DNA of 64,000 nt from Yuukianura sp. NJ FZ-2021 (lineage: Eukaryota): assembly GCA_046563655.1 (NCBI GenBank), contig CM102290.1, forward strand, positions 9,052,001 to 9,116,000, given 5' to 3'. Position 1 is the first letter of the stretch, and each line of letters begins with the position of its first letter. The notes beneath the pieces were generated by a model. That model was not told the origin of the DNA, did no database searches, and worked only from the letters and a program-made list of their open reading frames with translations. This document shows, piece after piece, positions 9,101 through 51,546 of this stretch. Position numbers and translations under genes: made by a program.

Positions 9101-11671
9101 AATGACAAAAGCAGACATTTGGTGATGACCTCTCTGTAGGGGTATTGCCTCTAAATGAAAATGATACGATCTCGTCTTAAAAGCATTTGAGCTCTTCCGG
9201 CGCCCCTATAATAATAACACCAACAACATTTCCAAAAAAACGACATTTCTTCTTGCTTCCTTCTATTCCATGCAGGTCGTCTGGAAGAGGCTTTGCATTT
9301 TTATCAGGAAGCACTGCTTAGAGATGCAAATCACACCGTGGCTCTCCTCAACACGGCCAGACTTATAAAGAAGTTTAATCTTCACGACAATGCAGAATCA
9401 CTATATCAAAGGTTAGTCCTTTTTTAGTAAGTGGGGAAAGCGGGAAAAGGAAGGAATATGACTTTCTCTTTAGAGCTGGAAGCTTTCCACGAAATATTTC
9501 ATGTGCCCCTTGCTCTCAACGCTTAGATAAACAAAATTGGCACAGAGTGTGTGGACATGCCAAGACAAAAAAAAATGTATGACCATAAAATAATGGTTCG
9601 TAAATTCTGAAATCGGGCGGAACTATTCAAAGGAGTTGTAGAAGAACTTTGATGAGGACGTAACGATGTAAAGGAGAAAGTTATAGGAAATATGAAACCT
9701 TTTGTCTTCAAATAAACTTCCAGAGCACTGCTTCAGAATGACGATCCACAGACAAAGGATGGACTCGGCGTTCTGTATCTTAGTACAGGCAGAGCAACCA
9801 AGGCGGAAGTACTTTTTACAGAAGCCCTTCGCATTCTTCCAAATGATCCAATAGTCCAAATACATTTGGTAAGTTCAAAAGCATGAGCGGGAAGTGAGGA
9901 CCATTTGTCAGTTACTACTAAAATTCAGCACGACCTCTCTTCCTCATCTCTCCTTCCGCCGACAGAGATCAGAGGAAGATCCTCTGATGTTCTCCTGCTG
10001 CCAAAAAATGAATATTTTCCAGCTGAATAAGATCTTTTAAAAACTTTGGCAGACTCTGCTGCTAAGTAGGCATGAAATTTTACTTTTCTCCATTAAGTCT
10101 CAGCATTTTGAAAGACTGTTGGCAGTGGCACACTAACTTTTAAACCCAGCAGCAGCACAGCTTCCAGCCCATTCTCATCCGGCGGAAGGACTTTCAATTA
10201 TCCTACCGTTAAAAAGTCTCGCCAATTAATCACGCTTTTACTTACAACAAAGGAGCAAGGTCGTGGTGATGTTAGTAGAATCAGTAGAATGTGAATAACC
10301 TTTGGTTGTCATGAAATGGCGAGGAGAAAGTGATTTCACTTTATGTTTCCGTTTTGTGACTGAATTTCTTTTCCTCTTTCCAATTCCTAGGCCCAAGCTC
10401 GTCTGCACTTACGGAAGTATGACGAGGCAGAGAGTCTTCTACTCTCCGTTATGGAACAGACAAACTCCAGTCAACGGGAAGCTCTCCATCAACTTTCCAT
10501 TCTTTACAGTCATTTGAACCGAACGTCAGACGCCGTCAAATATATTAAACTAGCGATCCGTACCTGCAGTGAGACAGAAATAAGCTGTGTCCCAATTCAC
10601 GCCTTTCATGGAGATCTTTCCAAGGACTTGGAAGATTTAGACTCCGCAATTCTGGTGAGTTCTTCTCGTCTATCCTACCAAAAAAAAACTTTCCCGGGTG
10701 GAGAAAGTAAGACTCTTTTTGAAACGAAAAAGCGAGACGATGTTGTCAAAAGAAGTAGTTATAAACGGAGATTCCCTTTGCCATGTCCAAAGGTTTTACC
10801 TATCACTCAAATCCCCTGTCTTCTAATGAAAGCCCAAAACAAATGGTTCACATAAGGTCGGAAGTTCCCACTTAATTTCAGTTTTCGTAGTTTGTAGTCA
10901 TTTACAACATTCAAGAGACGCTTACGTTTTTATGAGAGACACTCAAATTAAAATCTGATGAGTTTTGTCATCTTACAATACACGTGCCTCGAATTCAAAA
11001 TGTAGAAATTGGCAATGAATTAATTTTAATCAGCAATAAAAACCTTCTTTGAAGTAGCTTCACTCAATTTGTCCCCCAATGAGACCTAGAACTTCTAAGA
11101 ACCTAACCAAATCAATGTTCCGATCCGACCAAGTCAAAGGTCAAAAGCTAAAGCTACGGTTGGTTAAGACGTTTCATCGTCTTATCGTTATCGTTATCGT
11201 GAAACGTTATCGTAACGTTTCACATAAAACTCATTCTAAACTTTTAAATTTTTCAAAATACAGAGCTATAAACGAGCAGTGGAGATGCTGATCGAATCGA
11301 AGAGGTGCTGTATTAATCAAAAGTACATGATCCCGTCATCCATTGTTACTCATGTACATCTTAACCTGGGAGCAATTTACCATGGACAGGTAACACACCG
11401 ATTTTTACCTCGTTATCACTATGACATACTACTACAAGCAATAAAAAGTGAAACGGAGTAACTTACCTTCTAACAGGGAAAGTTCAAGGAAGCCTGGACC
11501 CACTACAACGAAGCTTTAGCTCAAGACTCCAGTAACGTCGTTCTTCTCCAAAATATCGAGAAATTAAAACGAGCCGAGATGCAGCATAAGAACAATTCGT
11601 CGTGTGACGGCAAGAAGGGAACCAATTTCCTCTCCAGGCACCAAAGTCTCCCAAGCCCAACAACCAGATAG
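103..11671 (+). CDS. TMTC1: TMTC1-like protein O-mannosyltransferase (transmembrane + TPR repeats), 3' part; 5' exons lie upstream of the window
   Basis: Phase-consistent GT-AG exons 103-273, 678-791, 6192-6332, 8810-9021, 9276-9411, 9724-9868, 10391-10654, 11264-11389, 11477-11671 (TAG). The translation contains KTWLRNEDWRSRESLFTSGLNLLPQNAKMHYNYANLQKDLG...LWPHHASANNNLGTLL...HAHAFFNLANL, the TMTC post-TM motif followed by TPR repeats, closest to the TMTC1 pattern (NAKxHYNYAN, HASAxNNLGTL). Confidence 0.9.
11199..11223. repeat. Perfect 11-bp inverted repeat adjoining a short (TTATCG)n tandem array in a TMTC1 intron
   Basis: GTGAAACGTTA-tcg-TAACGTTTCAC, preceded by TTATCG x3 (11182-11199). Confidence 0.8.
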
Positions 11672-29378: not shown

Positions 29379-32300
29379 ATGTATAAGGTTAAACAGTTCA
29401 TGAACAAGATCACTGACAAGGTTTGTTTAATCTTTAAGTAATATCCTTTTTGAATTGCCTCTCTTACCTCAAATTATCGTAAGAGTAAAAGCAGACGTTG
29501 GTTGATAATTATGCTGAAATTGGAAATACACTTGAATTTCTAGGGAACTGCTGAACCATCCTCTGGTGTTGTGCAAAACGTAGATGACGATCGGGATGGA
29601 CAAGTATCGGCTGAAGGTTTCCTATGCCCGGACTGCATGACTGCATATGCGTCCCCTGAATTGTTGGCTGAACATTATTCCACGAAGCATTTACCCGTCG
29701 CTGCTAGTGCTAACGAATCATATCCAGACGACGACAAACACGAAAACGATTTGAGCCAAGAACACGAACTGATTGAGTTACGCACTGCTCTGGAGGTAAT
29801 ATTGAAATTCGAAAGCAATTGCCTGAGAAATGATTAACTCAATTCTCATTTTTATAATCCAGAGCGAAAGAAAGCAATTTCGTATGATAGAACGCCGTTT
29901 CGAAGAAGTGTTTGAAGAATTAGAAGAGTACAGAAAGAATGCATACAGAATTGACTGCGAACAGACAAATGGTGAGGGTAACTTGGTTAGTGTTAATCCA
30001 GCATTCTTATGTACCAAAGGTAATTCAACTCTAATTCATTGTGTTGATATTTAGCGGAGGAAGAGAAAGCAAGATGGGAGGACGAATGTTTAGGTCTGAA
30101 AAAGCAGGTTGAAGATTGGTCGCTGAAGTACAACAAGACGAACAGTGATTTGGAGCTCGTTAAGACGTCAGCAGCAGAAGAACAGAAAGTGCTAAGGGAA
30201 TCGCTAGATGTTCTCAGGAAGCAGTTTTTAGAAGTAATGTCCTTTTGTAATATCTGTATAATTTACAAACGTGGAGTGGATTATGGTTTCTCAAACAGCT
30301 TCAAAACAAAGCCGCTATCAGTGAGGCAGAGTGTAAGAACCTAAGAGAAGAAATCCAGCGGCTGCGTGATCGACATGCTGAATTGGTACGTGGCATTGAA
30401 GGAGATGCAGGGATGCAGGCTGCTATTGAGTCATTGACCAAGGAAAGGGACGGACTTCAAGCCACCTTGGACACTGTACAAACACAAAATCGAGAGCTTA
30501 CAAAAAACTTACACAATGCTGGACTCGAGCTTGACAATTTGCGAAAAGACAGTGAAATCATCAGCTCGCAGTTTGATGCTTACAAGCTACAAGTAAACGC
30601 CGAGGCAGAAACTCACCGAAAGGAAGTCGAGGAAAAGGTAAGACACTTTTGTACGTCAGTCAAAAAAGTCGTCATTAAATTAACTCGCGAGTATTAGAAT
30701 TGTTATACTTAACTTAATTCTCGTTGTTTGACCAGGATCGATTGTATACGGAGGAGGTCAAAGAGCATAATCGTTCAAAAAGCAGTTGCGAATTACTACG
30801 TAAGTACACAGAAGTATTGTGTTCCGATTCCATTCCTTGTATTTACTCTTGTTTCTTCAGGAACCCAAGTGCTTTCTCAGACCGATGAGATTAAAAACTT
30901 GAAAAGTGGAATAGAAGAAAAAGTGGCACTGATGAAGGAGTTGGAAAAATCTAATGTAAGCAGTGTTCCCTTTCATTGACTGGAAGTCACGAATTCCCAA
31001 GGATGTATTAATGCTTATTGATTCTCTTTTACAGGCGCATTTTAAGGAGCAAATCACTGTTTTAACTGCTGAGGTGGAAGCTTTAAAGACGGAAGTTAGC
31101 CGTCACAAGGACCAATGTCTGTCGGGGGAAACTAAAATTACGGAGCTGGAGAAATCCCTTGCAAAGAGTGCTGAAAATGTGTACCTACTGGAGGCAGAGA
31201 AGGATAGTTTGCAAATGGCGAATAGAAGCATTCAAAATATTCTGGAAGAGCAAAGCAAAGCTTTTAATCGTTACCTGGCGGATGTGAGCAATGTTCTAGG
31301 CATGAAACATCCAGAGTATCGCAATCATTATGGCAATGGTGAAGGTGACGTGGATGCCAGAGAGTCAAACTACGACGCCTACCAGAAACACAGTAATGCC
31401 ATCGTGAAGGGCATGTCAGAAAAGATTATTTCCATGAAGGAAAGTCAAGAGCTACTTCAAAATGAAATGGAAAAGATGAAGCAAGAACTGATGAATTCTA
31501 AGTCAGAGAACGAGAGTTGCGCCAGTAGAAATACGGAGTTAGCTAAAGATCTAAAGGTTCAAAAAGAAGAACATGCCACTGTATTGGTAAGCAGCTATGC
31601 GTTGTTTTTGTCATAATTTGAATTAGATCGCAGTTTGCAGTAGAATTGGTTTCGAGTTATGTACTCATAAGTTTTTTTTTAAACAGGAACGTTTGCGGAA
31701 AGAGATGGAGGAAGATCGTAAATTTTTTGACGATAAGTTGAAGTCTGCTAAAAAGGTGGAGACTCAAGTGGCACAGCTGACAGAGCAAGTTACAACACTT
31801 CAGAGTGATGCTAAACGGTTTCAAGATGAACGTGATAATCTTCAGGCAGAGAGACTGGGTACAAATCAAAACAGAACTAAAACCAAGTTGGAAAAATCAT
31901 TGCTATATTTTCATGTATAGAATTAGACAAGAAGTACAAATCCAGTGAAGAGGCTCGATCACTGCTAATGGATCGGTGCCTCGCCAGCGAAAGTGAGTCA
32001 GAAACCTACAACGAAACCATTCAAGGTTTGCAGAGGAAACTGGCCGATGCTTTGGCAGCGCTACAGGAGCTTGGCAGAGAGAACCAAAGTTTGCAAGTGG
32101 AGAGCGCTAAACTTCAAGGTCGGAAGTGGACGGATGACTCAAATGTTAGCAACTGTTCAAATTGTTCCAAGGAATTTTCGATTACGATACGCAAGCATCA
32201 CTGTCGTGTTGTAAGTATTCAAAATTAGACTATTTCAAAATCAAACTAAGAAAAACTTTGAGTTTCATTGTATTATTCAACTTTTCGTTATTTTTTTTAT

Positions 32301-32411
32301 CAGTGTGGGAACATTTTCTGTCATGACTGTTCTGCTCGTACTGCTTCCATTCCTAGTTGCAAGAAACCGGTTCGAGTTTGTGACGCTTGTGCAGCTGATC
32401 TGGCGAAATGA
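29379..32411 (+). CDS. EEA1: Early endosome antigen 1-like tether (C2H2 zinc finger - coiled coil - FYVE), ~733 aa
   Basis: Exons 29379-29420, 29544-29795, 29863-29971, 30055-30233, 30299-30637, 30736-30799, 30861-30955, 31035-31586, 31687-31858, 31921-32210, 32304-32411 (TGA), 2202 nt. N-terminal EGFLCPDCMTAYASPELLAEHYSTKH finger; long heptad E/K/Q/L-rich region; C-terminal LQELGRENQSLQV...[40 protein letters not shown]...KKPVRVCDAC FYVE domain. Confidence 0.9.
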
Positions 32412-35400
32412 ATATAGAAGAATACGGAAGGATCTGAACCATATCGGAACAATTAATTAATCGAATTATTGAAAATGCATGACTTTTTTGGCACAAATCA
32501 AATCAAATTCTTAAACGGCCAAACAAGTATTGATGTTACTTTTGCTTTAAATAAATTTTTACGGGTCACTATTTCAAATCAGCGTTTTGTTTTCTGTTGA
32601 ACACTCAAAATTTTTGAAGTCCTGTACTTACCGAATCCGTTTGCATAGGCATTGTCCTATGCCAATAGCAGTAGTAATTTAGGAGAATTTTCAGTTTTCA
32701 GTAATTAATTGTCAAAGTTTTTGGAGATGAGTTTTGACACGGAATAGACTTGAAGTTTATTCTAATTGGGTGTTCCAAACTTTTAATTAATGGAGGTATA
32801 GAAGAATAGCATTTGAGTCATTGAGTAAAGCAAGGTGAAAGTGGGAGTGAAAGCATAGCTTCATCTTCAATTACATTTTCCTCTTCATCTTCTTTCAACA
32901 GCAATGCACACGGGGCTTATGTTTAATTAATTATGTGATTTCTATGTCATTTGAAAATCACTTTATGCCTTTCCCTTGTGCAAACATAGGCCGAAACAAA
33001 CGTCGGTCCCTGACCTGTGACTTGTGCAAGGTCAAGTCGCATTTCCCATCACCTTTTCATGTCAGGCTACACAAAAAGTAGTAAAAGAGATGTGCTATTG
33101 AATAGCATCAGCTTTACGAAAAACTACAGCCAAAGTTAAAAAAAAAGCGTTTTTTTTTGTATAAAGTTAATAATTCAAGGGTCGCAAAGGAAAATGAAAC
33201 TTTGTGAAGATAAGTGTTTTACCCTGTACAGTTTTTGCGGGCAACGACTACTGAAAATGTCGTGGGCATATTTTCTATCTCAATTTACGTCAATTACGGC
33301 CCCCATTCAATTACATTGTCCTGGACACTGTATCCGTTTTTGCAGAAAACTCACACCTATAAACTAAGCTAAAACCATTCGATTGTCCATCGTGCACAAA
33401 ATGCTGTGGGGGATCCAGTTCCAACATAATTTGGAATATCCATTAACAAAAATAGTGCACCCTACTGGACTAGCGGTTGGTAACAAGTTTTAGATTAATC
33501 AGTTCCGTTTACTGCTTTACTTGGTTGATTACTACTGGATTTTAATTTGAAATTTTTCAAGTTGGCTTGAAACTGATATGCCATAGGGATTTTTAATTCC
33601 GTCCTCTGGGTATTTGAATTCTGCACCCAAAACCAAAATGGAAATGAAGAATTCCTGTACGGAATGTCTCAAAAGTCGTAGGAGTCAAGGTTACAAAGGA
33701 GAGACGCTGGTGGGAATCGATGGAGCGCCTACAAGTAGATGGAAGAAAGTTTTGGGAAGTGAAGCTCCGGCTCAGAATGCCAATGAGATTAACATGAGCA
33801 ATTAAATTCCTTGGCTTCTGATTCCCAGAGAAAGTCAGATTAGTTCCCACTTTGGATCCAGCAAGGTTTTCCTATTCTGTCCTCAGACTTTCCCACTTTT
33901 CTGGAAGGAGTTGGTGGGACGAGGGAACTTTCTCCGTGCTTTCTTCCCTCGAAAACGTCGAATCTCGAATGGGAAATGACAGATTCCAGAAAATGGGGAA
34001 AAACGATACTTTCTTGTCTTCTCCTTTGAAGTTGAGCTCTACGACTCCTGCAATCTTTATCCCTCGAGTACTCTACTATTCCTAGCAAAGAACTTACATT
34101 ACTCTCCTTTTAGGTTTCAATTTACCCTTAACTTCCATTCCCCATTACTCTCCCAGCCTCTTCTGAGGAACGAGTCACCATGGTACTGTCTTCATTTTAT
34201 AAAGAACCAAAAGTCTTCTATGACGAACATTACTGTTAACACAGGGTTGCCAAAAGGTAGAACGACGAATCACAGGTTAGGCTGGAAATAATGAACGAAA
34301 TATGAACCATGTCCTGAAGTTTTCAATTTCACGAAATAACTCCCTCGGCTTGATCATGCTTTGCTTTTGCCAAAGTCAAACGAAGTCGTCACCCGAAACC
34401 TTTCAATTAGCGAATGAAAAATGTTTGTTTTTAACTTTTCCATTTTGGTTTTTGTGTTACCGATTTTTTTAGATGTGCGGATTAGGGCTATTTGGACCAT
34501 GCGTCTGAACTGCAAATGTTTTCAAAAACAACAAAGGTAGCTCAAATACATTTTGAAGAGAAAGTTTTATTCGAGCATTTTCAGTGCCGATGGTCCTGAG
34601 GCTACAAGACTGAAAGAGAAGCGTCCCATTTTAGACCTTGTTTTGAAGTACCCGCGTCCTGAGTGGTTTGTCTAAACTGGTGTTGACGTAAGGGGCTCAT
34701 AAATTTTGTCCCATGAAAAATGAGGAACATTGCCGAGATCTGAGGGGAAGTTAGTTACAGCGTCATCCTTGTGCTCTAGGGTTAACTATCTGTTCCTTTC
34801 CTCAGGTCTACGCAAGTTAGACACAAACTAGGGTGATTAAAAGTTCTTTTCATCATTAATTTTGTAAGAGAAAAGATCCAAGCAAACAAAACTTTCTCTT
34901 CTTCTTCCCTTGACTTTGTTCCCTTAATGGATGAGCTGAGGGAATTTAAGGTTCCGTAGTTCACAAACATTCCATCGTCAGTTAGTTACCATCCGGTGTA
35001 CTTTAATTCAAACCAATTGCCCATCTAGCCTTTTAAATTAGCTTTTTTAACGTTAGGTGAGTTGAGGTTAGTTAGGTCAGTTAGGTTCAGCAGAAGCACA
35101 TACTCCGTCGACAATGATTAGCATTCATAACAGGGTAGCTAATTTATTGAAACTTGACTCAGGAGGTTACTGCAAGAAGAAAGTCTTCGTCGCTACCCAC
35201 TCCAACTCTCAGCCCTCAATAATTTACATTCCCTGTTCTCCACAAAAGCGTGCTGAATTTTTTGACAACTTTTTTAATTACTCAAATCTTAATTTGAAAA
35301 AGCGAGAAAAGTGTATTTGCTCTGCCATTTCTTAGAAAACCAAAAATAGCAGCGAGGAGGGAAACTGTTTTTCAAAAAAAAACTTTCTTAAGAGTAAGAT

Positions 35401-38030
35401 TGATTCTGCAGTTGATGAAAAAGCGGAAGGAAAAGTCAAGTAGGGTTTTCGCATGTGTTTACTTTCCATTTTCAATTTAGATGGCATTTCCTTATTAAAC
35501 TCAGAGCTCTTGAGAATGATGGACGAGTACTAACGATAAGTGTATGTATGTGTGTACAAGGGCAAATGGATTCGGCGCATTGCAATTGCATTTATCAAAT
35601 TTCTCAGTTTTAACGAAAAAAAAGATAACGTTAGAAGGAAAGCGTTGGGGGGCGCAACGTGACTGGGGCGTTCTGAGAGTAGTAGTTGGGTAGTGAAAGT
35701 GAAAGTGGAGAAAGCAGAATATGCATGGCAGGTAGGAAGAGGATTGGCCGCAGTCAGACGTTGGGTCTCGGTGGGAACAAAAAGCGTCTAGCAGGAGAAC
35801 TCTTGGACTTGGAATCTTGGAGGCAATAGGAAGGGAAGGTTAACCTTACAGGATTTGCGGTGTTTGAACATTTCAATTTCAGTTTTTTGAGAAAAAAAAT
35901 AAGCCGTGAGCATATCGTAAAAAAGTTCATATCCCATCTTTTACAACGTTTCAGTCAATCATATCAAACATCCAAGTAAATCAGAATTTTTAATCTTGAC
36001 AAATCCATTTCCAACCATCACACATCAAATTTACATTATTCGGGACCACCATTCATCCAATCAAAATAAATCTACTGCTACTACTCTCGCCTAAAGTAAG
36101 TTATTAAACCGTCTAATACTATTTTAACTCTCATGCAGAGACAAATTGCACTTTATTTTAGAATTTATATCATAAATTAAAAAAACTACTCAAAACTTTT
36201 TGTTTCGAATCTCGAAAGTTGGACGACTTTTGGCTAAAGTCAACCAACTTTTTGGTAGGTTTGAATAAGTTACCGTTGGCTAATGGTTTCACTGAGCAAA
36301 TATTGGGTTTCCTTGAAGTATTCAAGCGCCTTTAACTTCTATTTTAAGGAACCTCAGAAACATAGTTGGCAGCTAACAATTTCCAATGAAGAGCACTTTG
36401 TTTAACTAAAAAAGAAGAACAGAGTTTAATTACGTTCCTGTCAGTTTAGAGCTGATGAGAAAAGCTTAGCGGAAGGAAAGCAGCATAACAAAATTTTAAG
36501 CCGTTGCTGACAGGGTAGTACGAAAGCATAAGTGTTCGTTGAAATAGCCCTTCGTCTCCAGAACGTTTTGAGAAGAGCTGGAGGCTTAAGGCTGTGACTT
36601 GTCTTTGTCTTTCAGAAGCAAATGAGTTTCAAAGCCAAAGAAGAATTCTGAGGAGCCATTGCCTGCCTTGGCCCTGTTCCTGGAAGGGGTGAGTCAGAGT
36701 CTGGTGCTGGATTTCCGTTGTCACTTTTTTAGAAAAGTGAAAGCTAAAGGGATGAGTTATCCCGTTGAGCTACGGAAGTGTAGGCAGGAACCTGTTGGAT
36801 CTTTATCCTGTTTCTGCTGGAAATAACAGGACCAACGTGTATAGCATTTAGAGGATCCAGAATGTGCGGGATATGTGCCCAAGAGGTCTTTAGTCCTTTG
36901 GTAAATAATGGTTTAGTGACGGAGAAAGCAACAGAGTAAGTTACAACGGAGACTACTCTCCCCACTTTCACTTCAAGCGAAAGTCCTACCACCACGGACA
37001 TAGCCACAACTCGAATTAATTATCTAGTGGCATGAGTAACGACTTCCTGAAGCAGTATTTAGCGTGAAGTTGTAATTTCAACCATTTATTGAGCTAATGG
37101 AGAGGGACAAGTAGCAAACGACCCGCTGAGGGGGCGTATGGACATGACCCGCCTTCTTTCAAAATTCTAAGTAAATGCAGTTTCCCTCTTGGTGCTTGGT
37201 TGTGTTCTACTTTAGGAGGCGTTATTCTGCTAACCCAAAGCGCCAATTTGTGTTTGTGTTTCATATGGTCCAACTTTTCCAGAAAAACACCCATCATACT
37301 TGTTCCTTTACTTGAAAACGAAAATGATAATTTCTAGATAAAATTTATCGTTAATGCTACTTTCTCCGTGGAGAAAGCGTAGGGGGCGGGTGACGCTGGA
37401 GTTCAATTTAGAATCCTGACGACGCCAGTTACCATTTCCTTGCTCAATAGTTATGCATGTGTATGGTTTTGATAGAAACTTTTTTTATTCTCGTTTATGA
37501 AAGAGAAAACTAGAATATGAAATACTTTATATGCATCCAGATTTGGACTGCGTGAGGAAAGACGAATATAAAAATCTTACGAAAAAAAGTAAACTTCTTT
37601 TCTCAGAAATAGAACTGTTGTAAAGAGTCTCTGCCACCAAGAAGTCGTTCCATTAAAATAAAAACTTTTCTCCGTCCTAATATTTGCGCTCCACGCCTCT
37701 GGAAAATGACTTTCAAATTGAGCATGTCACATAAAATTTTGCCCGCGGAAATATTTTCATTGTTTAACTCTCCTTTCCTTGGTTTTTTCTTCGTTTAGCG
37801 AAGACTACCCAGCTCAGAAGGAAGTGGCGGGTGAACTGTTGGTGACATTGACAGAATCCAGACTGCGGGTACTTTCACCGGTAGGAGACTCTAGCTCTCT
37901 TCAAACCCACTTTCGGTTCCACTTGAGAAACAATTCAGGACTTCGTCTTCATCTGCCTAGCGGCGTTTGTGTCCAAACCCTGAAATACGATATTCATTTG
38001 GTTACTTGACGGAGAAAGCTTTCGAGAGAG

Positions 38031-41000
38031 ATGGGAAGACGTCACTTTATGTCAGATCACCATGTCGTTCCACCGGACTACTCCCTGGATGCAATCATTT
38101 ATGTTGTCGTAAGTTACATGATCCATTCTTATGAGCTATCGTCTCTTTAGACTTTAACCATCAAAACTTTTTCTCCTGCTACGTTCTAAATGCTCAATAT
38201 GCATTGAACACCCGAACCGCGTCCAGATGCTCTCTCTGGAAGACTTTCCCTGATGGATTGGTTTTCAAAATTCGTTTTGATGGTTCAGCGGGGCTGGGAG
38301 GCTGGTGCATATGCGAAGGAAGTATGGGCATGGGCTATGTATCTCATAGAACAGTGTTGTTCTTTTTATACTATAGGAACTACACAGTCCTTTCTAAGAA
38401 AAATGACAAAGGAAAGTAAATATTGCCTCCTGAAACATTGTCGTGTTTGTGCCATTTTCAATTCTAAGTTTGAGCAGGAAAACTCTTAAGGTTGGCGTGT
38501 GCAAGTGTGAAAGTAAGAAGAGAAAGCAATCTTGGGTAAGAAGAGAAACAAATCTTGAATTTCATTCTCTTCCTTTATTCGCAAGGAGCAGGTTTCACAT
38601 ATTTATACAGTATAACAAAAGAAGCAAAAAATTCAAGTTAGGCTTCAATCTCGGTTGAAAAGCATAACCGTGTCTTTTTCACAATGAAAAAGCCTTGTTT
38701 TCTTCCTATTATTTTTTCTCGTCAATTGCTTCTGCAACACATCCAAATCTTCATGCAATGAAACTCTGAATTTAAATTAGGCTGGTGAAAAACTTCACTT
38801 TACCGTTTGTATCTTGGGCTGAAGCCAATTTGATATTCTTACCCTGTGACTCCTGGACGTTAGAATGCCAAAGGCATTTTCAGTTCATTAAGAAGAAATG
38901 GAGTAGTAGGTGGATGTTGATAAAGGAAGTGAAAGTTTGACTAGTTAATCATAATAAAGGTTTCTAATAACAGTCCATTTGGATGGAATCAAAATCAAAT
39001 GGAACTTGGAATTGAGTTTGACTTTTTTTGAATTTCTTGGGACACAATGTGTTCTTTTGAAGTTCGGCGAGATTTTTCTTGGAAAAAGAGAAAAAAATCA
39101 AAGCCGATTTTGAAATGTCACGGAAAAGCTGAATAATAAAAAGAAAGCTGTTTTCTTAGGAGAAAACGGCTGGGACCGTGGAACCGGTTGGTACAAAACC
39201 GTTTCCTTGCATGTGCTACCGTCTCAAATAAGTGTGCTGTAGTAATGCCATGTCCATTGATTCCAGTCCCAACTTGTTAATTTATGATTATTGCTTTCCT
39301 AATTTCAGCTCCAATTCAATTTTACTTTCTTTAAACAAAAATTTCCTTGTTTTTTAACATTAAAAATAGAAGTATGAAGTAAGACTCAATTTAAAAAAAA
39401 ACTCTGTGAAAAAAAATTGCTGGAATTATTGTGCAAAACTCGGGCTAAAAAAATTTTGGTCGTTAAAAGTTGTTAAAACTTTCATTTTTGTTTCTAGAAT
39501 TTTATTTTTGTTGTTCAAACTGATCTGTTTTAAAGGGAGAAACAGAGCTGGTGCAATTTAAAGTTAGAATAGGACTTTCACCTCATTTGTAGAGAACTCC
39601 GTCCATGTTCCATCGTTTATTGTTTACAGTTGAGCTCATCAGATTACACAAATTAGCCAATTTCCGTGTCTATATTCCATTGGAAAGTGCTTTGCCTAAG
39701 AGCCTTGTTAAAATTAATCAGGATGAGAGCTCTTACAATGAAACTCATGCTAGTCATAGGATCCTAGAGAAAGCATTTGAAAATTGGAGCTGTTTTCTCC
39801 ATGAAAATGGATTCAGGAGGTGGAGGCTGGAAGTCATTAAATTCCGCTCGGATCAAAATCCCTTTCTCCTTCACAATGACAGAAATAATTGGACTTTGCG
39901 AGAGTTTGGATTGGAATGGATCTGCGATTGCAACTTAACCTAGCCTTTCCTGGCCTTGTGCTTCCATCTGTGCAAAGGTGTTTTCTTGCACAGGACACGA
40001 GAAAGTGTTCAGGAATAGGCTGGAGCGTGGAGTAATATTAGTTTCAATTCCTTCGAGAATTAGACGGAAAGTTGCAGTAAGAACCAATGATGAAAGTTAG
40101 TAAGACGAAAGCGGGAATGTGGGTTGAAAATGGAAGTGAGAGAAATTACAGACATAAGATTGGATAGTGCTTCTAGAAAGTTGTTGTGGTGCGAAACATT
40201 CCAGCACTTCCGTGGATGTCGTCCATGTAATTGTAGACGTCATGACCCTGATTGGCCCTTGGGACACATCCAACCACTTTCCATCGTCCCTCAATACACT
40301 TTTCTAACTTTCTTCAATAGTAACTTCATATTAATCGAGAATTTTCTTCCATTTCATTCGTCACGGACGCTAGTATTTCCAAGCACCGTCTTTAGTTGTT
40401 TCCCAAGAGTTGGGATGCTTTGGAAAAACTGGTAGATGTAGAAGCATTGTTTTATCGGAACAATGAGCTTGAGCCTGAAGCAAATGAAAAAAAAATCAAA
40501 TTAATTGAATTTTCAAGTTGTTTTTTGTTTAAACAAACAAAAGAAACGGAGTGAATACACAAGTGACTTTTCAATTAAAACGAATACATTAAACAAACAT
40601 TGAAAAAAAATTGAAGAGAAAGCACATCCAGGAATAACTATAACATGCGCATAGTTTTCAGTTTAAAAAACAATTGTGTGAAATAAAGTCAGTAGTAAGT
40701 TGTAACACTTACTTGTTTGACTGTATGTTTGAACTTTTGCAAAGTCTTAAGCACTTTAACACAGTAGAAAGGATTCAGGCTTACGAATTCGAACAAGTTC
40801 ACATTGTTTGTTCCTTTGGCAGAGGCCTAGTACTAAACGTAGAGGTTACTCCAGCTTAATAGACGCCAAGAAAAAATTGTGTGCGAAAAGGGAGAAAGGC
40901 GGTTTTTATAAGGAAGCCCGAAGAAAGTTTCCTTCTTTCTAAATCCACTAATGGTGTAGATGGCTAATGACTTTTGCTTTCTCCTGTTTACTTTCTTAGC

Positions 41001-43871
41001 TACTCTTCCATGTATAAGGGTTTCCCCAGTGCTGGTACGTCTTTCCAATTTAAGTACATGTATCGCCTTCCAGCATCTCTGTAAATGTAGTAGGAAACTG
41101 GGAATTGACCTATATTATAGAGACGTAAGAAGAGATTAACTTTTTACCAAATGCATTTTGGACAAGATGTTCGTAGAACAAAGTCCGCAGGGGACTTTGG
41201 AGTCTTGAAAATAGGGAATGGCTCAGAGACTTTTGAAAATCTTTTGCCGCCAGGAATAGGATTGCTCGTCGACTGGCCTTTGGGTTTGGTAGCGGAAAAA
41301 AAGAGACTTTCTCTCCCTTCGTTTTTCAGTAATTGCAAATCCGTTTTCCTAGTAGAGAAAGCACTTATCTCTGTGTCAAAGTAGCCAGAGATTAGTTGTC
41401 GTGGAACCTCTGCAAAGTTCAAAGGCTACTTGGATCCAATCTCACATTTTAAAACTCGCCCACAAAGAAACTTCCCAGATATGGGTCACTACTCTACAGT
41501 CACATTTTTCAGGGAGCCATACGGCGCAGCCACTGAATCCACTTTCTGGAAGTGATAGTTACACAAAAGTGCATTAGGTGAGCAGCGTCGCTTTTTCTAA
41601 GCGTCTTTTAAAAAATATGGACAAGCACGAGCGACACAGGTGAAGCCAATTTCTGGTGCTGCTTACCCTGGGAACAGAAAATAAAAAGTGAAAGGTCATT
41701 TATCTTTCTGTAATGTAAAAGCAGGGCTACTACTTTTTACCATGCGAATCCAGCACCTCTGACTAATACTCTTAAGTACCTTTCCTAATTCCTTCTGTGC
41801 ATAATTCATACGAGGCAGTTATTTACAATTTAGAGATACAGTAGGACACAGTTGGAGACTTGGGTCCTTAAGTCCCCCCTAGCACAAACCTGTTCTGTCT
41901 AACATCCGTGGGCAGTTGGTTACCAAAGTTTTTTAATCCCGCTCGAGACTTATAAACCGTAGCTCGGTGTGTATTCAAATAGTTCTAGAATTCCGGAGGG
42001 ATAAGCCCAAATCCTTCGTACTCACTTTCACTTTCTCCTTGCGAAAATTGAGAAAGCATAAGAAATAACCTAAGTTTCAACGAATACAGCCTCAGGATTA
42101 TTACCTTTTGGCATTTGTGCTTTCTACTGTACTACTATTGTGCTGTGGATAGTAAGACATAGAACGGCATGGAGTTTATTTGTTTTTTGCATTGGAAACT
42201 AAGGGAACACAGCCTCAAAGACTCTTTAAGTAAACAATTTCCTGGCAAGAAACGCTGAAGAATCTTGAAAGGAAAAGAAAATGCTTGTCTCTCCAAAAAC
42301 TAGCTGCTTCAGCACAATTCTCAGGTATTTCGATTGAACATTTCTGAAGAACTGTTTGTAGCCTGTGTTTCCTCCAATGATTGTCCTCTCACAGAGTGAG
42401 TTTAGTTGAAAGTGGGATGCGTAGGAGAACAAAGTCAACAGTAAACAGAAAATATGCAGAGCGAAGGAGTTCTGTTGGTGGAATCAGGGGAGAAAGTAAC
42501 TAGTGGGCTAATTTGATCAAATTTTGTTCCCGCTTTCTTCTGTACTGAAGAAACCAACGGTATAAGACACGCGAGTGGTAGAGCGGTCTACCCTTAGTTA
42601 TTTTTACGAAGAATACGGGCGGACTGGATGGTAGAAAACAGTGGAGGCCCTATGTCGTTCCCTGTCTCTACTAATTTCCACTAAGCTCCATCTTCGTCTT
42701 CCTCCTTACTATATTTTCTTGTGGTTGTGGGTTCCTCTTTCATCTTCATTTTCCGTTGAGCGGAAGGCACTAAAAATAGAGTTAAATTTCAATTTGATTT
42801 TGAACAAATCAAGGTTTAGGAGAGGAGAGAAGAAATCTCATTCCCGCAGAATGGAAAAGTGGCTTTTCCTTTGGCAAAGCAGCGGAAGACTACTTTGGGA
42901 AGATTTCAAAGTCTTCCTTTCACTTGTGAGACTTTAAGGGGCCAAGGGGATAGGGATGAAACCAAACGCTCAAAGTGAGCTCCTCCGAGAAAAGTACCAA
43001 TAATCTCTTTCCTTGTGCTTTTCACTTCTTTCAAAATTGACGCAAGTGAATTTGCTTAAATCCAATTGACCTTTTGTGATCTTGCTGGTTATGGAGGCCT
43101 GCCTTTTCAAGAAGGGTGAAAGTGAAAATTTCCACTTCCATTCCCATTTCTCTATCCTTGCTGTTCCTTATTTTAACATTTGTTTATCCAATCAATCAAA
43201 AACAATCGCCACATTTTTGCACATTAAAAAACTTTTCCTTGTTTTTCAGTTACAATTTGAATTTGAGTATATCTATCTTTCTATAAGAGAATTTTAAGCG
43301 TCCAAGGTATTTCTGATAATTTTTAGTTAAAAGTTCTGTTTGAATTCTTGCTTTGTGCAGTGCAGACTGATGTTTACGACAATCAAACAAAACATAATTT
43401 ATGATTCTGTATTTAAAGCTGTTTCCTGCTGTTTCTATTCGATTAAAAATTTATTTTGATGCCGCAGCGAAGTAGGAACAAATGTTTGAAATTGAAGGAG
43501 AAAAATCGTCGGAAACGAAGTTATTCCAGTACAATAGGGCTGCCATTAAAGAGTGGGTGGCGGGGAGGAATAACTGTTTATGTTGTGGGTTGAAATTGAG
43601 CGCTGATTGTGTTGGGTAGTGAGCAGTTAATGAGACTTTTGTGTTTATAATACCGTAGGTGGTCGTGGTTTTCTACGCAGCGATCATCATCCTCCTCCTC
43701 ACGACCAACTTCCGGCGACAAAGAAGTCAGAGTTCCCAGCGATGCAGTGGGGATGCTCAGTCGGTGAGAAAGCACTGGTTGTTCTATAATCCCATCAGCG
43801 GAGAGGCACAGCAGGCCACGAAAAAGGAATCACAACATTTCATTCACAGGCAGGACGCTGAAACTGTCTAG
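38031..43871 (+). CDS. Putative single-pass membrane microprotein (96 aa, or 90 aa from ATG 38049), two coding exons, C-terminal PDZ-binding motif
   Basis: Exon 38031-38108 (ATG...GTTGTC|GTAAGT consensus donor, phase 0) joins exon 43659-43871 (cgtag| acceptor, ends TAG). Product: MGRRHFMSDHHVVPPDYSLDAIIYVV-VVVVFYAAIIILLLTTNFRRQRSQSSQRCSGDAQSVRKHWLFYNPISGEAQQATKKESQHFIHRQDAETV. Splicing completes one continuous ~22-residue hydrophobic helix followed by RRQR. Confidence 0.7.
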
Positions 43872-45690
43872 AACCCTGTCACCAAACGACCACTTCCTGC
43901 TGGGACTATGCCTAGCTCCCACGGATTAGTAGAACCGACTTATGGCAAAGAGTAATGTAACAATGTATATTTATTAAACGAAACAAGACAGGGAGGGGAG
44001 ACACTAAAAGATTAAAGTGCACAAGCTGAAAATGAGAAATCGATCAGATTCAAATTAGATATGAGAAAAGGCGTACTGTTTCTTCTTGAACCAAAAAAAA
44101 ATTGTGTAATGATCTTTACACGTTATTAATTTTGTAAAAATGTTTTCTGTCCCTAAACATGTCAGTTTCCAGTTAATGTACTACGACTTAATGATAATCA
44201 TTTGTCTTTTGGACTTAAATGGTAGTGAAATTTCTTTGTGCACAAATTGCACCAAAATTGTTAACACAACAAAAAATGTAGTCAAATACTTTTTTCCAAC
44301 AGAAATCTTGTCGTTCTGTTAAGGTACAAAAAATTACTAAAAGTAATGGTTCTCTTGTCGTCGTAGTTTTGCAAAACGCTGTCATTTTCCTTCGGAAAGT
44401 ATTTTGATTGGACAAAGGTTGAACAAGATGGAGAAAGCCAGCGACTGTAAATACTACTGCGGCGGTTTCGGCAAGTTAACGTCACTTTGGTCAAAAGAAG
44501 CTGAAGTTCTCAATCTACATTTCCTTTGCAGAGTTCAAATTCTTCCTTAACTCACTTCCGTTTGGCCAAATTGGTACTGACCTGAAATAGACGGGAGACT
44601 CAGTGGAGAAAGTAGTTTGGAGAATATTGACGTGAATTGATGATGGTGAGGTGGATAAAAAATGCTGAATGTGATGGACTTTCTCTGCAGTAATGGTGCT
44701 TGGGATTGGGGTAAAGATTCTGGAAAAAAAAATCTTTCATTTGAGCGCACTTTGTGAAGAAAGTTTAACTTGTTACAAAACTGTTAGGAAAAGATCGATC
44801 TTCCTATGATTCCATATTTACTCTATTTTCCTTCTTCCCTCTCCCCTCCATAAGCTATTCTTCTAAAAAAAGAAACCTTTGGACACATCATAATATTATT
44901 CGTTGTTAAGCTAATATTGCCCAGTTCGGATAAATCGATGTTGGATATAATTGGATAATTTTAGGTGGACAAATTGGACAAATGTCACCCAATCCCTATA
45001 TCTTTACATAGGTTATTTAAGCAAGAAAAAACTCACCTTAACTTGTAACCATCATTTACCAAAGTTTAAAAGTTAGATAAGTTTAGCCCTTGTCATTTTG
45101 AAATTAGTAACTGACTGGTTACGTAAGTTTTTAAGGTCAAAGAGAAGACTTAATTTTGTTCCGAACTTGGTAATTACTGGAAAAGCTGCTGGAATGAACA
45201 AGTTTAGAAAGTTGATTACGTGTATTTTTTCCAAGCTTTCACTAATGGTCAAATATCGTTTTCAGTTGCATGTTCTTTAGTTTGTCGGGGGTTTGAGTAT
45301 TATTATACTAAAAGTAGTGTTCGTGGTGCTATTGGTTATTGAGCAAGCCAAATTGTAGATCCTTTTACCCGTCGATTCACTATGGTAGTCATTAGTTTTA
45401 CATTAGAAATGGGTGATTTGATGGAGATTTTGATTGATAGTGTAAAACTAAAAAAATCAAGGGATCAAGGCAAGATTCATCATCAGCCATTTTGCGCTTC
45501 ATCATCTATATCTCCGTTTTCTTTAATATTAGTACGGTAAACTTCTATATATCACAAAAATGGAACCTATTATGAAATAAAACTTAATCATTTCCCGTTG
45601 AATTCCTTAAGTGATTGGTACACATTTTGACTTTGCTTTCGATTTTGGCAGTCACAAATTACGCAAAAAAAAATCTTTTTCCGTAATGGA

Positions 45691-48800: not shown

Positions 48801-50880
48801 TGTAGACTCGTTCAGTGAATGGAGGTTCCGAAATTTCTGATCCCGTTAAAATTCCCATTCCAACCAGAAATGTATTCTGCCCTTCCTTCGGTTGGATTCA
48901 ACAGAGCGGCAAAGTTTAATTAAGAAATAAGTGGGATTGTTCTTTCAGTTCCTCCAGTCCCAACAACTTCGACGAAAAGCCTTATTGCTAAATCCCTTCA
49001 TATATGCAGAACAGGCATGAAAATGTTTTTCGGAAGAATGAAAGAAAAGAAAATAGCTTCTATCGGTTAGAATTGTTTTAGTAATAAAATTCCGATACTC
49101 TTTTTTATAGACCTTTGTAATTCAATTGATTCCGTTTTTTTATTCGTTATAAAAAAATTTTATACCACGTTATTATCAGTAGACCTAACCGAACGGTTTT
49201 CAAAATAATAAAACGAGATTACGTTTGTGCTTGGGCGTATTTTTATGCATTGGTGAATTCGTATCATTTTAAATTTGGGCGCCATTTTTGGTTTGGCGGA
49301 AGAGTTTTGACGTTTCGCTGGAAGTGGTTTTTGTATAAAAATTATGAGTTTGGTAAAACGGAGAGAAAGTTTCAACTTTGGGTTGCAGTGAAGTGAAAGT
49401 GAGGAGGGGGAGGCAGTAAAGCATAGGTAATGGTGTTTGAATTGAGACGGGAGCTTAGGCCGAATGAAAGGCAATCATCATACGGAGGAACAACTGAAGA
49501 TATCAAAAAGTTCTGGATGAGTAGACGACTGGTTGGTGGTTGTAGTGTCTGGTCGTTGGGTGTCTAACATGGTGGGAATAAATGGAACTCAAATATCCAC
49601 TTCATCTTTCCAAACTGCTCCAGCAAAAGTCGCTTTCTCTCCAAACATTTTCTCCAGTTGAATTTTCCTGCTTCATTCAAACATAAAAAGTAAAACTCCC
49701 TAGGTTTCAAACGACTCTGGAGAAGATCCCATATCTGTCTCAAAAATTTCTTGGTTTGTGTATTAGGTGTAGATGGAGAGAGGACCTTCGCAGCATTAGC
49801 ACCAAGAACTCCAATGGAACCGGTCCACTGAAATATGAAACGACCTTTGCTCTATAAAAAAATCCAGCTTTGGTCCAGCGCTGTTTTCACCAAGGCAAAA
49901 ACAATTTTGGATACCTTCATAGACGTAGCTAACGACTTTCCCGGACGTAGTAGAAAAGTTTTTTTTCCCAATAATTACGGTTTCAACGTCGTTTTCCGAC
50001 CTGATGGAAATTCTTCAGTCATAATTTTCCTAAATGTTTTAAACTTTTTGAATTTGATAAACCATCGCCAGTTATAAAGTTCACTTCAAATGGGAACTTT
50101 TCGGTCATGAAGGCAAGAATTTTTTGATAAAGTCGTAGGTTTAGGTTTTTAGTGTGTGAGGGTCGTAGAGGAAAGGAAAGCAGCATAAGTGATGTCTAAT
50201 GGACGATGTCTTGAAATGGACTTCCTGGAGCTCGACCTTGAATTGAGTCGAAGCCCATTTCTAAAAATTCCGGAACCGGCAGACACTTTTTGTCGTACAA
50301 GGAGTGTGGAGGACAAATGGAGAAAGTGTGGATTTACTCTCGTGTCACAGTCACTTTCACTCACGCTCCCTTAAGCCTTCACATTAAACTGCCACTCTCC
50401 ATTTCTTTCAATTCAAATAGAATCCGCTCTTCCGCCAAACCCACTTACCTACCCCATTCAAAACATCCATTCAATATCCGCCCTTCCCACTACTTCAAAT
50501 ACGACTTTTAGAAAATGTTTTTCGAAAAAGAAAAGAAAAAAGAAATAATAATGTTATGTGCCAAGCATGCATGTTTTTACTTCATTTGAACGGAGCTTAA
50601 TACAATTCAAAAACGTCGCAAGTTGGAACATATTTTTACGTCAATTCAAAAAGGCCTAAGAATTGTGATTTTTAGAAAGTTGAGACCTTGGAACTTTTAC
50701 AATCGAATTAACCATAGGCGGGATCAGCCAAAATATACGACGGAGGATGGAAGTGACGATAAGAGTATGTTGTCCCAACTTTTGGACGCTTTCTCCCCTG
50801 TGACAGGGATAAGATCCTATTGATTTGAAAATATGGGAGTAGAGGCTCAAGTATTTGGAGAGCCACAATAGTAGGTGATA

Positions 50881-51546
50881 TCACAAACTGATAAACAAAA
50901 GTTGGAATCAAAAAAGTGGGAAAGATTAAAAAACAAGCTTCTCCCTATTCATATAAAGTCCTTAATTTGGAGATTTTGGCATAATGCCATTATTTCGTTT
51001 GATATTGCTAAAAATATGGGCCTAATTTCAGACGGCAGTTGCCCATACTGCCATCAAACAAAGACTTTCTGTTTGCACCTAATTGTGTGCATATCTACGA
51101 AAAAATTGTGGGAATATGTTCATTCACTATTAAAAAAATCAGATTCAAAGAATAAGGTTTATGATAAGACTTTTGGTTGTAATGATGATTTTGCTAACTA
51201 TCTCATTTTTAGTGCAATATATATTATATACAATAGATTTATCTATAATATTAACTCTGGTAAGCTAGATTTCGATATTATAGGTAAATATAAGCAATTT
51301 CTGTTCCAAAATATATTTTTAAGTTTTCATAGTTTTAAAAGTAAAAATGATATTGACCAATTTAGACGTCTTTGGTCAGATGCCAAATTTATTAATATTA
51401 ATCCGAATTCTGTTGAAATTAATTTGTAACTTTAAGATACACTAATTCCTATGTTATGTCATAGTTTAAGTCACATTATGAAATACTGAAATATATTTCA
51501 CGAAAAAAAAAAATAAATATGTAAATTATTTGTAAAAAAAAAAAAA
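50881..51546 (+). mobile_element. 5'-truncated non-LTR retrotransposon (L1/Tx1-like LINE 3' end) with poly(A) tail and target-site duplication
   Basis: Open frame to 51429 encoding LLPIHIKSLIWRFWHNAI...CPYCHQTKTFCLHLIVCISTKKLWEYV, the Cys/His zinc-binding region found after LINE reverse transcriptase. AATAAA near 51512, A13 tail at 51534-51546. Direct repeat GTAGGTGATA at 50871-50880 and 51547-51556. Visibly more AT-rich than its flanks. Confidence 0.88.

Follow-up and report, generated by a model that had tools for sequence, protein, structure and literature searches.

A stretch of 64,000 nucleotides of forward-strand DNA from the springtail Yuukianura sp. NJ FZ-2021 (GenBank assembly GCA_046563655.1, contig CM102290.1, positions 9,052,001 to 9,116,000; called the window here and numbered from its first letter) was analyzed for a spliced microprotein gene at positions 38031–43871. 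We conclude that this two-exon locus is almost certainly a genuine gene for a 96-residue single-pass membrane protein, a conclusion reached by comparing sequences. Its product is the orthologue belonging to a protein family that has no name and has been passed on by vertical descent; the members have about 100–180 residues and occur in chelicerates, crustaceans, springtails and some insects. The best overall explanation, which we favor by a modest preference, is that of a real gene whose product would act as an accessory subunit docking through its helix.

Two coding exons joined across a phase-0 intron

Coding exon 1 (38031–38108, forward strand) consists of an ATG and 25 further codons; they encode a short N-terminal part, predicted to be extracellular, together with the initial third of the membrane helix. 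It is followed by a phase-0 intron of 5550 nucleotides (38109–43658, forward strand) with the donor GTAAGT at 38109–38114 and the acceptor AG at 43657–43658. Coding exon 2 (43659–43871, forward strand) has 70 codons and a TAG stop; it completes the helix and adds a basic cluster next to the membrane, a linker that varies and a tail that is conserved. In the window sequence, exons 1 and 2 join in phase to give 96 codons and a stop, and the spliced model put forward in a preliminary description of this DNA was borne out, the exons, the GTAAGT donor, the AG acceptor and the in-phase frame all being present. The frame of exon 2 cannot open further upstream because the in-frame TAG directly 5' of 43659 is the splice acceptor itself. 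At the other end, an in-frame TGA (38007–38009, forward strand) lies 7–8 codons 5' of the ATG at 38031, and this ATG is the first usable one in the frame of exon 1 because the 95 open codons before the TGA hold no ATG.

Protein searches with exon 2 were used to find relatives. A word-indexed search gave one candidate and one match, a metagenome gene call that covers the terminal exon only (P0003) and shows 59% identity to exon 2 with a 20-residue whole-codon indel in the linker. An exhaustive phmmer search of 1.84 billion representatives at an expectation value (E) ≤0.001 returned five proteins, four of which are springtail sequences with E from 4e-26 to 5e-20: P0003 again, Folsomia candida OXA44153.1 (P0005), Orchesella dallaii CAL8082060.1 (P0006) and Allacma fusca CAG7718631.1 (P0007). 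Identity to exon 2 over the matched stretches was 79% for the Folsomia protein, 73% for the Orchesella protein and 61% for the Allacma protein. The fifth protein (P0008; 1122 residues, E 3e-5, 23% identity in four stretches) was dropped as a likely composition match.

The Orchesella and Allacma proteins each contain, in a single chain, a segment like exon 1 with the exon 2 sequence immediately after it. When these two proteins were compared with the window by tblastn, the matches fell at 38010/38031–38129 and at 43659–43868, and nothing else in the window matched at E<0.01. All three orthologues, none of which has a described function, share the window's helix, tail and AETV end, and they differ from it in linker length by whole-codon indels, as the springtail sequences do from one another. 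Their N-termini are more diverse: in the Orchesella and Allacma proteins the N-terminal segment is the same as that of exon 1, the Allacma protein has in addition a longer N-terminal part with two Cys residues, and the N-terminus of the Folsomia protein is unrelated, probably owing to a mis-modelled first exon.

A metagenome scan gave 52 pattern matches, from which three springtail loci (L001, L002 and L003) were confirmed. L003 carries both exons, at 5871–5954 and at 9989–10216 plus the stop, separated by an intron of 4034 nucleotides, and its donor GTAAGTTAC and acceptor CCGTAG are both identical to the corresponding words of the window. In L001 and L002, too, an AG acceptor stands at the codon where the window has its own; exon 1 was not found at these two loci, whose contigs hold only 799 nucleotides and about 3.4 kilobases (kb) upstream. 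When the window and L003 were compared as DNA and in six frames, over a span that took in the intron, about 5 kb before the gene and the sequence after it, exons 1 and 2 were the sole parts that aligned. The proportions of synonymous (pS) and non-synonymous (pN) differences from L003 were 0.83 and 0.21 over the 26 codons of exon 1; for exon 2 against L003, L001 and L002, pS was saturated at 0.78–0.97 and pN was 0.15–0.18. The comparison of dN/dS type in relatives, which had been proposed as a check of the gene, thus came out in its favor, with saturated synonymous change (0.78–0.97) against non-synonymous values of 0.15–0.21.

Each of the two frames is short by itself, as would be expected if the locus were not a gene but two short open frames that happen to lie beside splice-like motifs. 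Such a pair does not account for conservation restricted to the exons, saturated pS beside low pN, splice sites and an intron position that have been kept, and the 56 relatives described below. In our view the comparative data already refute the chance pairing, and we consider it extremely improbable.

An arthropod family that is hard to model

The search was widened with two profiles, one made of springtail sequences including the exon 2 peptide of the window (A2) and one a wider family profile of 20 sequences (A3). With A2, 27 proteins were found at E≤1 among 3284 candidates, and the arthropod members from outside the springtails had E from 5e-8 to 2e-4. With A3, 58 matches at E≤10 were obtained among the 8000 candidates scored in a search of 5.8 billion entries; 56 of them, at E≤4.7e-7, constitute the family, and springtail proteins were retrieved at about 1e-27. 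The hosts are horseshoe crabs, spiders, one scorpion, mites, decapods, one amphipod, one mantis shrimp, springtails and, among insects, four genera (Anabrus, Gryllus, Cloeon and Neocloeon). Wherever a member has been given a name, the label reads uncharacterised, hypothetical, unnamed or of unknown function. The 58 matches include Orthoptera and mayflies but no insects of the Holometabola or Hemiptera; with scoring confined to 8000 candidates, this gap is a lead and not a finding.

Members such as those of Limulus (LOC111089377), Parasteatoda (P0020), Homarus (LOC121866101) and Cloeon (LOC135947208) resemble the window protein in the core helix, the end of the helix and the basic cluster, and also in a hydrophobic strand motif in the tail and a terminal Val or Leu. 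The helix of the family ends in Gly-Thr-Asn, and that of the window in Thr-Thr-Asn at the same place. A quick tree of 40 rows separated Pancrustacea from Chelicerata with a Shimodaira–Hasegawa-like approximate likelihood ratio test (SH-aLRT) value of 98, a split that fits vertical descent from an arthropod ancestor. Read-through gene calls from spiders (P0028–P0030 and P0060) break at the codon of the springtail intron, and since this position is common to spiders and springtails, the phase-0 intron within the helix is ancient. Decapods have two distinct groups of paralogues, and horseshoe crabs have at least three copies.

The family is systematically hard to model. Aberrant deposited models, which read through the intron, start from an incorrect first exon or shift frame in the tail, include P0005 (Folsomia), P0047 (Trichonephila), P0060 and P0025 (Caerostris), P0048 and P0049. 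The preliminary description had presented the protein as hidden and easily left unannotated. The aberrant ends of the Folsomia P0005, Trichonephila P0047 and Caerostris P0060 models agree with it in that the gene is easily mis-modelled, but the family is not hidden in general, as 56 relatives are on record.

Protein anatomy and predicted topology

The window protein has a single hydropathy peak (Kyte–Doolittle 3.31) at residues 22–40. The peak straddles the exon junction, which confirmed the earlier proposal that the two exons meet inside one hydrophobic helix. By hydropathy windows, the first part of the helix segment lies at 38085–38108 (forward strand; residues ~19–26) and the second at 43659–43706 (forward strand; residues 27–42), followed by an Arg-rich cluster with three Arg within six residues and a fourth six residues further on. 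As these basic residues are on the C-terminal side of the helix, the prediction fits the N-terminus-outside, positive-inside arrangement that had been claimed. The predicted topology is of the KCNE type, with a single helix, no signal peptide, an outside N-terminus and basic residues after the helix.

Conservation of the transmembrane helix in relatives had been named as a point on which the preliminary description could fail, and the helix core turned out to be the best-kept part of the protein. Its identity to the consensus of 40 arthropod members is 70%, compared with 37% for the N-terminal part and 27% for the tail, and the whole helix is conserved, not one face only. The conserved cytoplasmic tail (43767–43868, forward strand) comprises the last 34 residues with the AETV end and is nearly invariant among springtails. 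An AlphaFold model of the Orchesella protein, made with a 20-sequence alignment, has a helix at 18–46, with block-mean predicted local distance difference test (pLDDT) values of 89–95 over residues 21–40. A disordered linker follows, and then a beta-hairpin and short helix at 96–117 with block-mean pLDDT of 71–82. A Foldseek search of this model against the PDB gave no match at E≤0.001, and a wide VIA-align search gave generic long-helix matches only (best Z 4.0), which are uninformative for a single helix.

The part before the helix is short in the window protein, at only about 18 residues, and exon 1 encodes no Asn. In chelicerates, insects and Allacma, this part is a longer ectodomain with two Cys residues, which measures 40–60 residues in the pan-arthropod members; in chelicerates an Asn-x-Thr/Ser sequon, absent from the window protein, stands beside the second Cys. 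No upstream exon for a Cys-containing ectodomain was found by regular expression and tblastn over 32300–38030. Immediately upstream of the gene, 37722–38009 (forward strand) is a stop-free stretch of 95 codons in the frame of exon 1, without an ATG and with the TGA at its end. The N-terminus of a mayfly homologue aligns weakly through the TGA at 38007 (E 0.028), and the Allacma alignment starts right after it. The stretch may be a relic of an ancestral Cys-containing ectodomain lost in this lineage, or it may be due to chance.

Possible relationship to KCNE and SMIM34

KCNE1–6 (MinK/MiRP; PF02060) and the family are alike in being small, with one helix, no signal peptide, a predicted outside N-terminus and a basic cluster after the helix, and both keep an aromatic residue at the helix end that faces outward; their tails are unrelated. 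The family might be a genuine invertebrate offshoot of the KCNE/SMIM34 superfamily, much changed in sequence, with voltage-gated K+ channels (KCNQ or other Kv) as the targets of its modulation. This would be a special case of the accessory-subunit explanation, and we regard it as possible but unlikely.

Several searches gave hints in its direction. In the ESM Atlas, the top three clusters for the spider protein P0020 are of the SMIM34A/SMIM34 type (0.94, 0.93 and 0.93, with 203–216 shared features), and PF02060 is found on 13%, 31% and 13% of the members of these three clusters, with 14 of the 30 matches in that set. Vertebrate SMIM34/SMIM34A are thereby the nearest language-model clusters to this spider protein (0.93–0.94), these values being feature scores and not alignments. 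Exon 2 of the window alone scored only 0.77–0.82, with an ISK_Channel cluster at 0.77. Among 177,635 PDB sequences, KCNE2 (2m0q_A) was the better of two matches for the A3 profile (E 0.48) and the sole match for profile A4 (E 0.40), and its alignment with both spans the region from the helix to the basic cluster. Chains of KCNE1 and KCNE3 were never among the PDB matches of A3 and A4.

The first match outside the family in the A3 search was a KCNE2-like fish protein (P0064, E 0.2). This protein is a bona fide KCNE, since it matches PF02060 at 3e-12 (46.7 bits against a cut-off of 22.1) and the KCNE1–3 chains at 1e-7 to 3e-9. Comparison of the family with P0064 by hhalign gave a probability of 94–95%. 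The native score was 45.1, compared with 35.5 ± 2.1 when the flanks were shuffled and a shared nine-residue word was kept, and 0 of 100 and 1 of 100 shuffles reached the native value. However, with the shared word masked the score was 15.0 and the probability 0.8%, and P0064 had been picked by shared words. Most of the hhalign score comes from the one shared nine-residue word, and the ordered flanks add a modest signal.

Other single-pass accessory subunits of channels or pumps, similar to the role proposed here, are the C. elegans MPS-1 to MPS-4 (PF17523) and FXYD (PF02038) proteins. One spider member out of the 38 tested matched MPS-4, at an E of 0.17 that is below the cut-off of the model, and PF02038 matched none of the 38. 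PF02060 itself matched none of 38 members at E≤5 and none of three springtail proteins at E≤10 (0 of 41 overall), and it gave no match for the exon peptides of the window at E≤1. A cytoplasmic juxtamembrane Asp-Pro-Tyr motif is a hallmark of the KCNE family; the motif is present in P0064 and in the KCNE2 chain 2m0q_A but absent from the A3/A4 consensus and from the tail of the window protein. Another KCNE feature, an extracellular N-glycosylation sequon, was not found in the window protein. All the E-values of the KCNE hints, moreover, are above 0.1, and helix composition alone is able to give matches of this kind.

The likeness to KCNE claimed in the preliminary description was thus retained in part: the predicted one-helix topology with the N-terminus outside and the sub-threshold hints agree with it, but PF02060 (0 of 41) and the missing Asp-Pro-Tyr motif do not. 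Judged from these comparisons, KCNE membership appears to fail, while a faint likeness remains, to which several sub-threshold hints point weakly and in concert.

The literature also speaks against a KCNE origin. According to PMC11659587, which reports KCNE genes from vertebrates only, and bioRxiv 10.64898/2026.04.28.721385, which notes the nematode mps genes as KCNE-like, invertebrates have no canonical KCNE. The available part of bioRxiv 10.1101/2025.09.21.677649 contains no statement on invertebrate KCNE. Judging by titles, no report of an arthropod KCNE was found, and no functional study of SMIM34 or its older names. The identification of KCNE6 with SMIM34 was considered and rejected, as KCNE6 lies near pax3 according to PMC11659587. 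The fuller proposal, that the family supplies the counterpart of KCNE/SMIM34 so long missing from invertebrates, as a pan-arthropod single-helix beta subunit tuning KCNQ or other Kv channels, is a tentative one that we rate as doubtful.

The C-terminus and the proposed PDZ ligand

Of 40 family members, 36 end in Val and 4 in Leu. The AETV end is found in all six springtail sequences and also in L003 and L001. Position -2 is variable across the 40 members, being Ala in 9, Glu in 8, Thr in 7, Leu in 5, Val in 4, Gln, Asp and Ser in 2 each and Asn in 1. In the scheme given in PMC7094393, PDZ ligands are of class I (X-[S/T]-X-Phi), class II (X-Phi-X-Phi) or class III (X-[D/E]-X-Phi). Because AETV has Glu at -2 and Thr at -1, it follows the class III pattern and not that of class I. 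Nine of the 40 members have Ser or Thr at -2 as in class I, and ten have Asp or Glu as in class III, a class assignment by pattern only that includes all six springtail sequences.

The preliminary description had proposed a KCNE-like subunit anchored to PDZ scaffolds through a canonical class I ligand. The Val or Leu at the end of every one of the 40 members, the fixed AETV of the springtails and a free hydrophobic C-terminus, which is the minimum for PDZ binding, are in line with such anchoring. The class I assignment, however, was a register error: it needs Ser or Thr at -2, where the window protein has Glu and where these residues occur in only the nine members mentioned, the position itself varying across the family. 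A terminal Val is, in addition, a known signal for export from the endoplasmic reticulum (ER) and offers an alternative to PDZ anchoring. We consider the class I anchored KCNE-like subunit quite improbable. Conservation of the C-terminus, which the preliminary description also expected, holds for AETV within the springtails, but the family as a whole keeps only the terminal Val or Leu. In the sequences compared, the conserved feature is a free hydrophobic C-terminus, as would suit a PDZ ligand not tied to one class and equally a C-terminal-valine export signal.

A proposed role as an accessory subunit

We propose that the protein would insert without a signal peptide, its short N-terminus facing out and its tail facing the cytoplasm, and that the conserved helix would dock on a multi-pass membrane protein (a channel, transporter or receptor), making it an accessory, beta-type subunit. 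Peptides of the KCNE, FXYD and regulin types work in this manner. The Arg-rich cluster beside the membrane, the hairpin of the tail and the invariant terminal Val or Leu may serve in assembly-dependent trafficking or scaffold binding, by way of either a PDZ domain of no fixed class or a C-terminal-valine export signal. Four findings hint at this mechanism: the helix core has 70% consensus identity and its flanks 27–37%, all 40 members end in Val or Leu, the AlphaFold model shows the helix with confidence and the tail hairpin with moderate confidence, and the nearest look-alikes are families of accessory subunits. On its own, the mechanism appears to us about evenly balanced.

The protein might instead act alone, either by self-assembly of its helix into a phospholamban- or viroporin-like oligomer or small pore, or as a stand-alone trafficking or adaptor tag. 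Conservation of the whole helix and not of one face is consistent with self-assembly, and in so small a protein the hairpin and the end of the tail, both conserved and cytoplasmic, could by themselves draw in cytosolic factors. None of the present results favors oligomers, however, and a beta-branched helix with a Gly/Thr/Asn end and Arg-based motifs are more typical of partner-dependent subunits, and action alone seems improbable to us.

There were some limitations to the accessory-subunit explanation, and the following points weigh against it. The conserved helix could equally reflect self-assembly, and the gene neighborhood is uninformative in a eukaryote. The topology was predicted from hydropathy and charge only. 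No Pfam family matches were obtained for 41 full-length members and the two exon peptides of the window (E≤1 to 10). In single-sequence PDB searches, none of four members matched KCNE or any accessory subunit, and a springtail-only profile gave no PDB match; both results count against the KCNE/SMIM34 proposal as well. Given the absent Cys-containing N-terminal part, the window protein may be a trimmed version, or an upstream exon may have been missed. The gene model at the locus, finally, was derived by comparison, and a search of sequencing runs with positions 37700–44700 listed no RNA data set containing it.

Other features of the window

A candidate poly(A) signal, ATTAAA, which is a pattern match only, lies at 43973–43978 (forward strand), 102 nucleotides 3' of the stop codon. 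The three longest open reading frames of the intron have no Pfam match, and the only tandem repeat found is a single trivial 23-mer inside the intron. An Rfam search of the whole 64-kb window gave no matches.

At about 30048–32228 (forward strand) there are several long open frames that are rich in coiled coil and end in a match to the FYVE zinc finger (PF01363, E 3.5e-9). This region looks like the 3' part of a coiled-coil/FYVE gene of endosomal type, on the same strand and about 5.8 kb upstream of the microprotein gene. Downstream, a 184-codon open frame at 50875–51429 (forward strand) matches the reverse-transcriptase zinc-binding family PF13966 at E 1.7e-5, with 25.8 bits against a cut-off of 27.5, and is probably a retroelement fragment.

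Significance of the family

In summary, the locus is part of a family that has been kept since the arthropod ancestor, most strongly in its helix and in the C-terminal Val or Leu, and that has no name, Pfam model or described function. Single-helix accessory subunits determine how channels and pumps behave, but their genes are easy to miss or to model wrongly, and this family provides corrections to the gene models of several arthropod genomes. If the link to KCNE fails, the family would still mark a partner-dependent membrane protein, one that is apparently missing for flies, beetles and bugs among the matches from the 8000 candidates scored. The weak look-alikes that bear a family name are mostly of the KCNE type, and if the KCNE reading is true, the origin of KCNE-type modulation would move from early vertebrates to at least the protostome–deuterostome ancestor.

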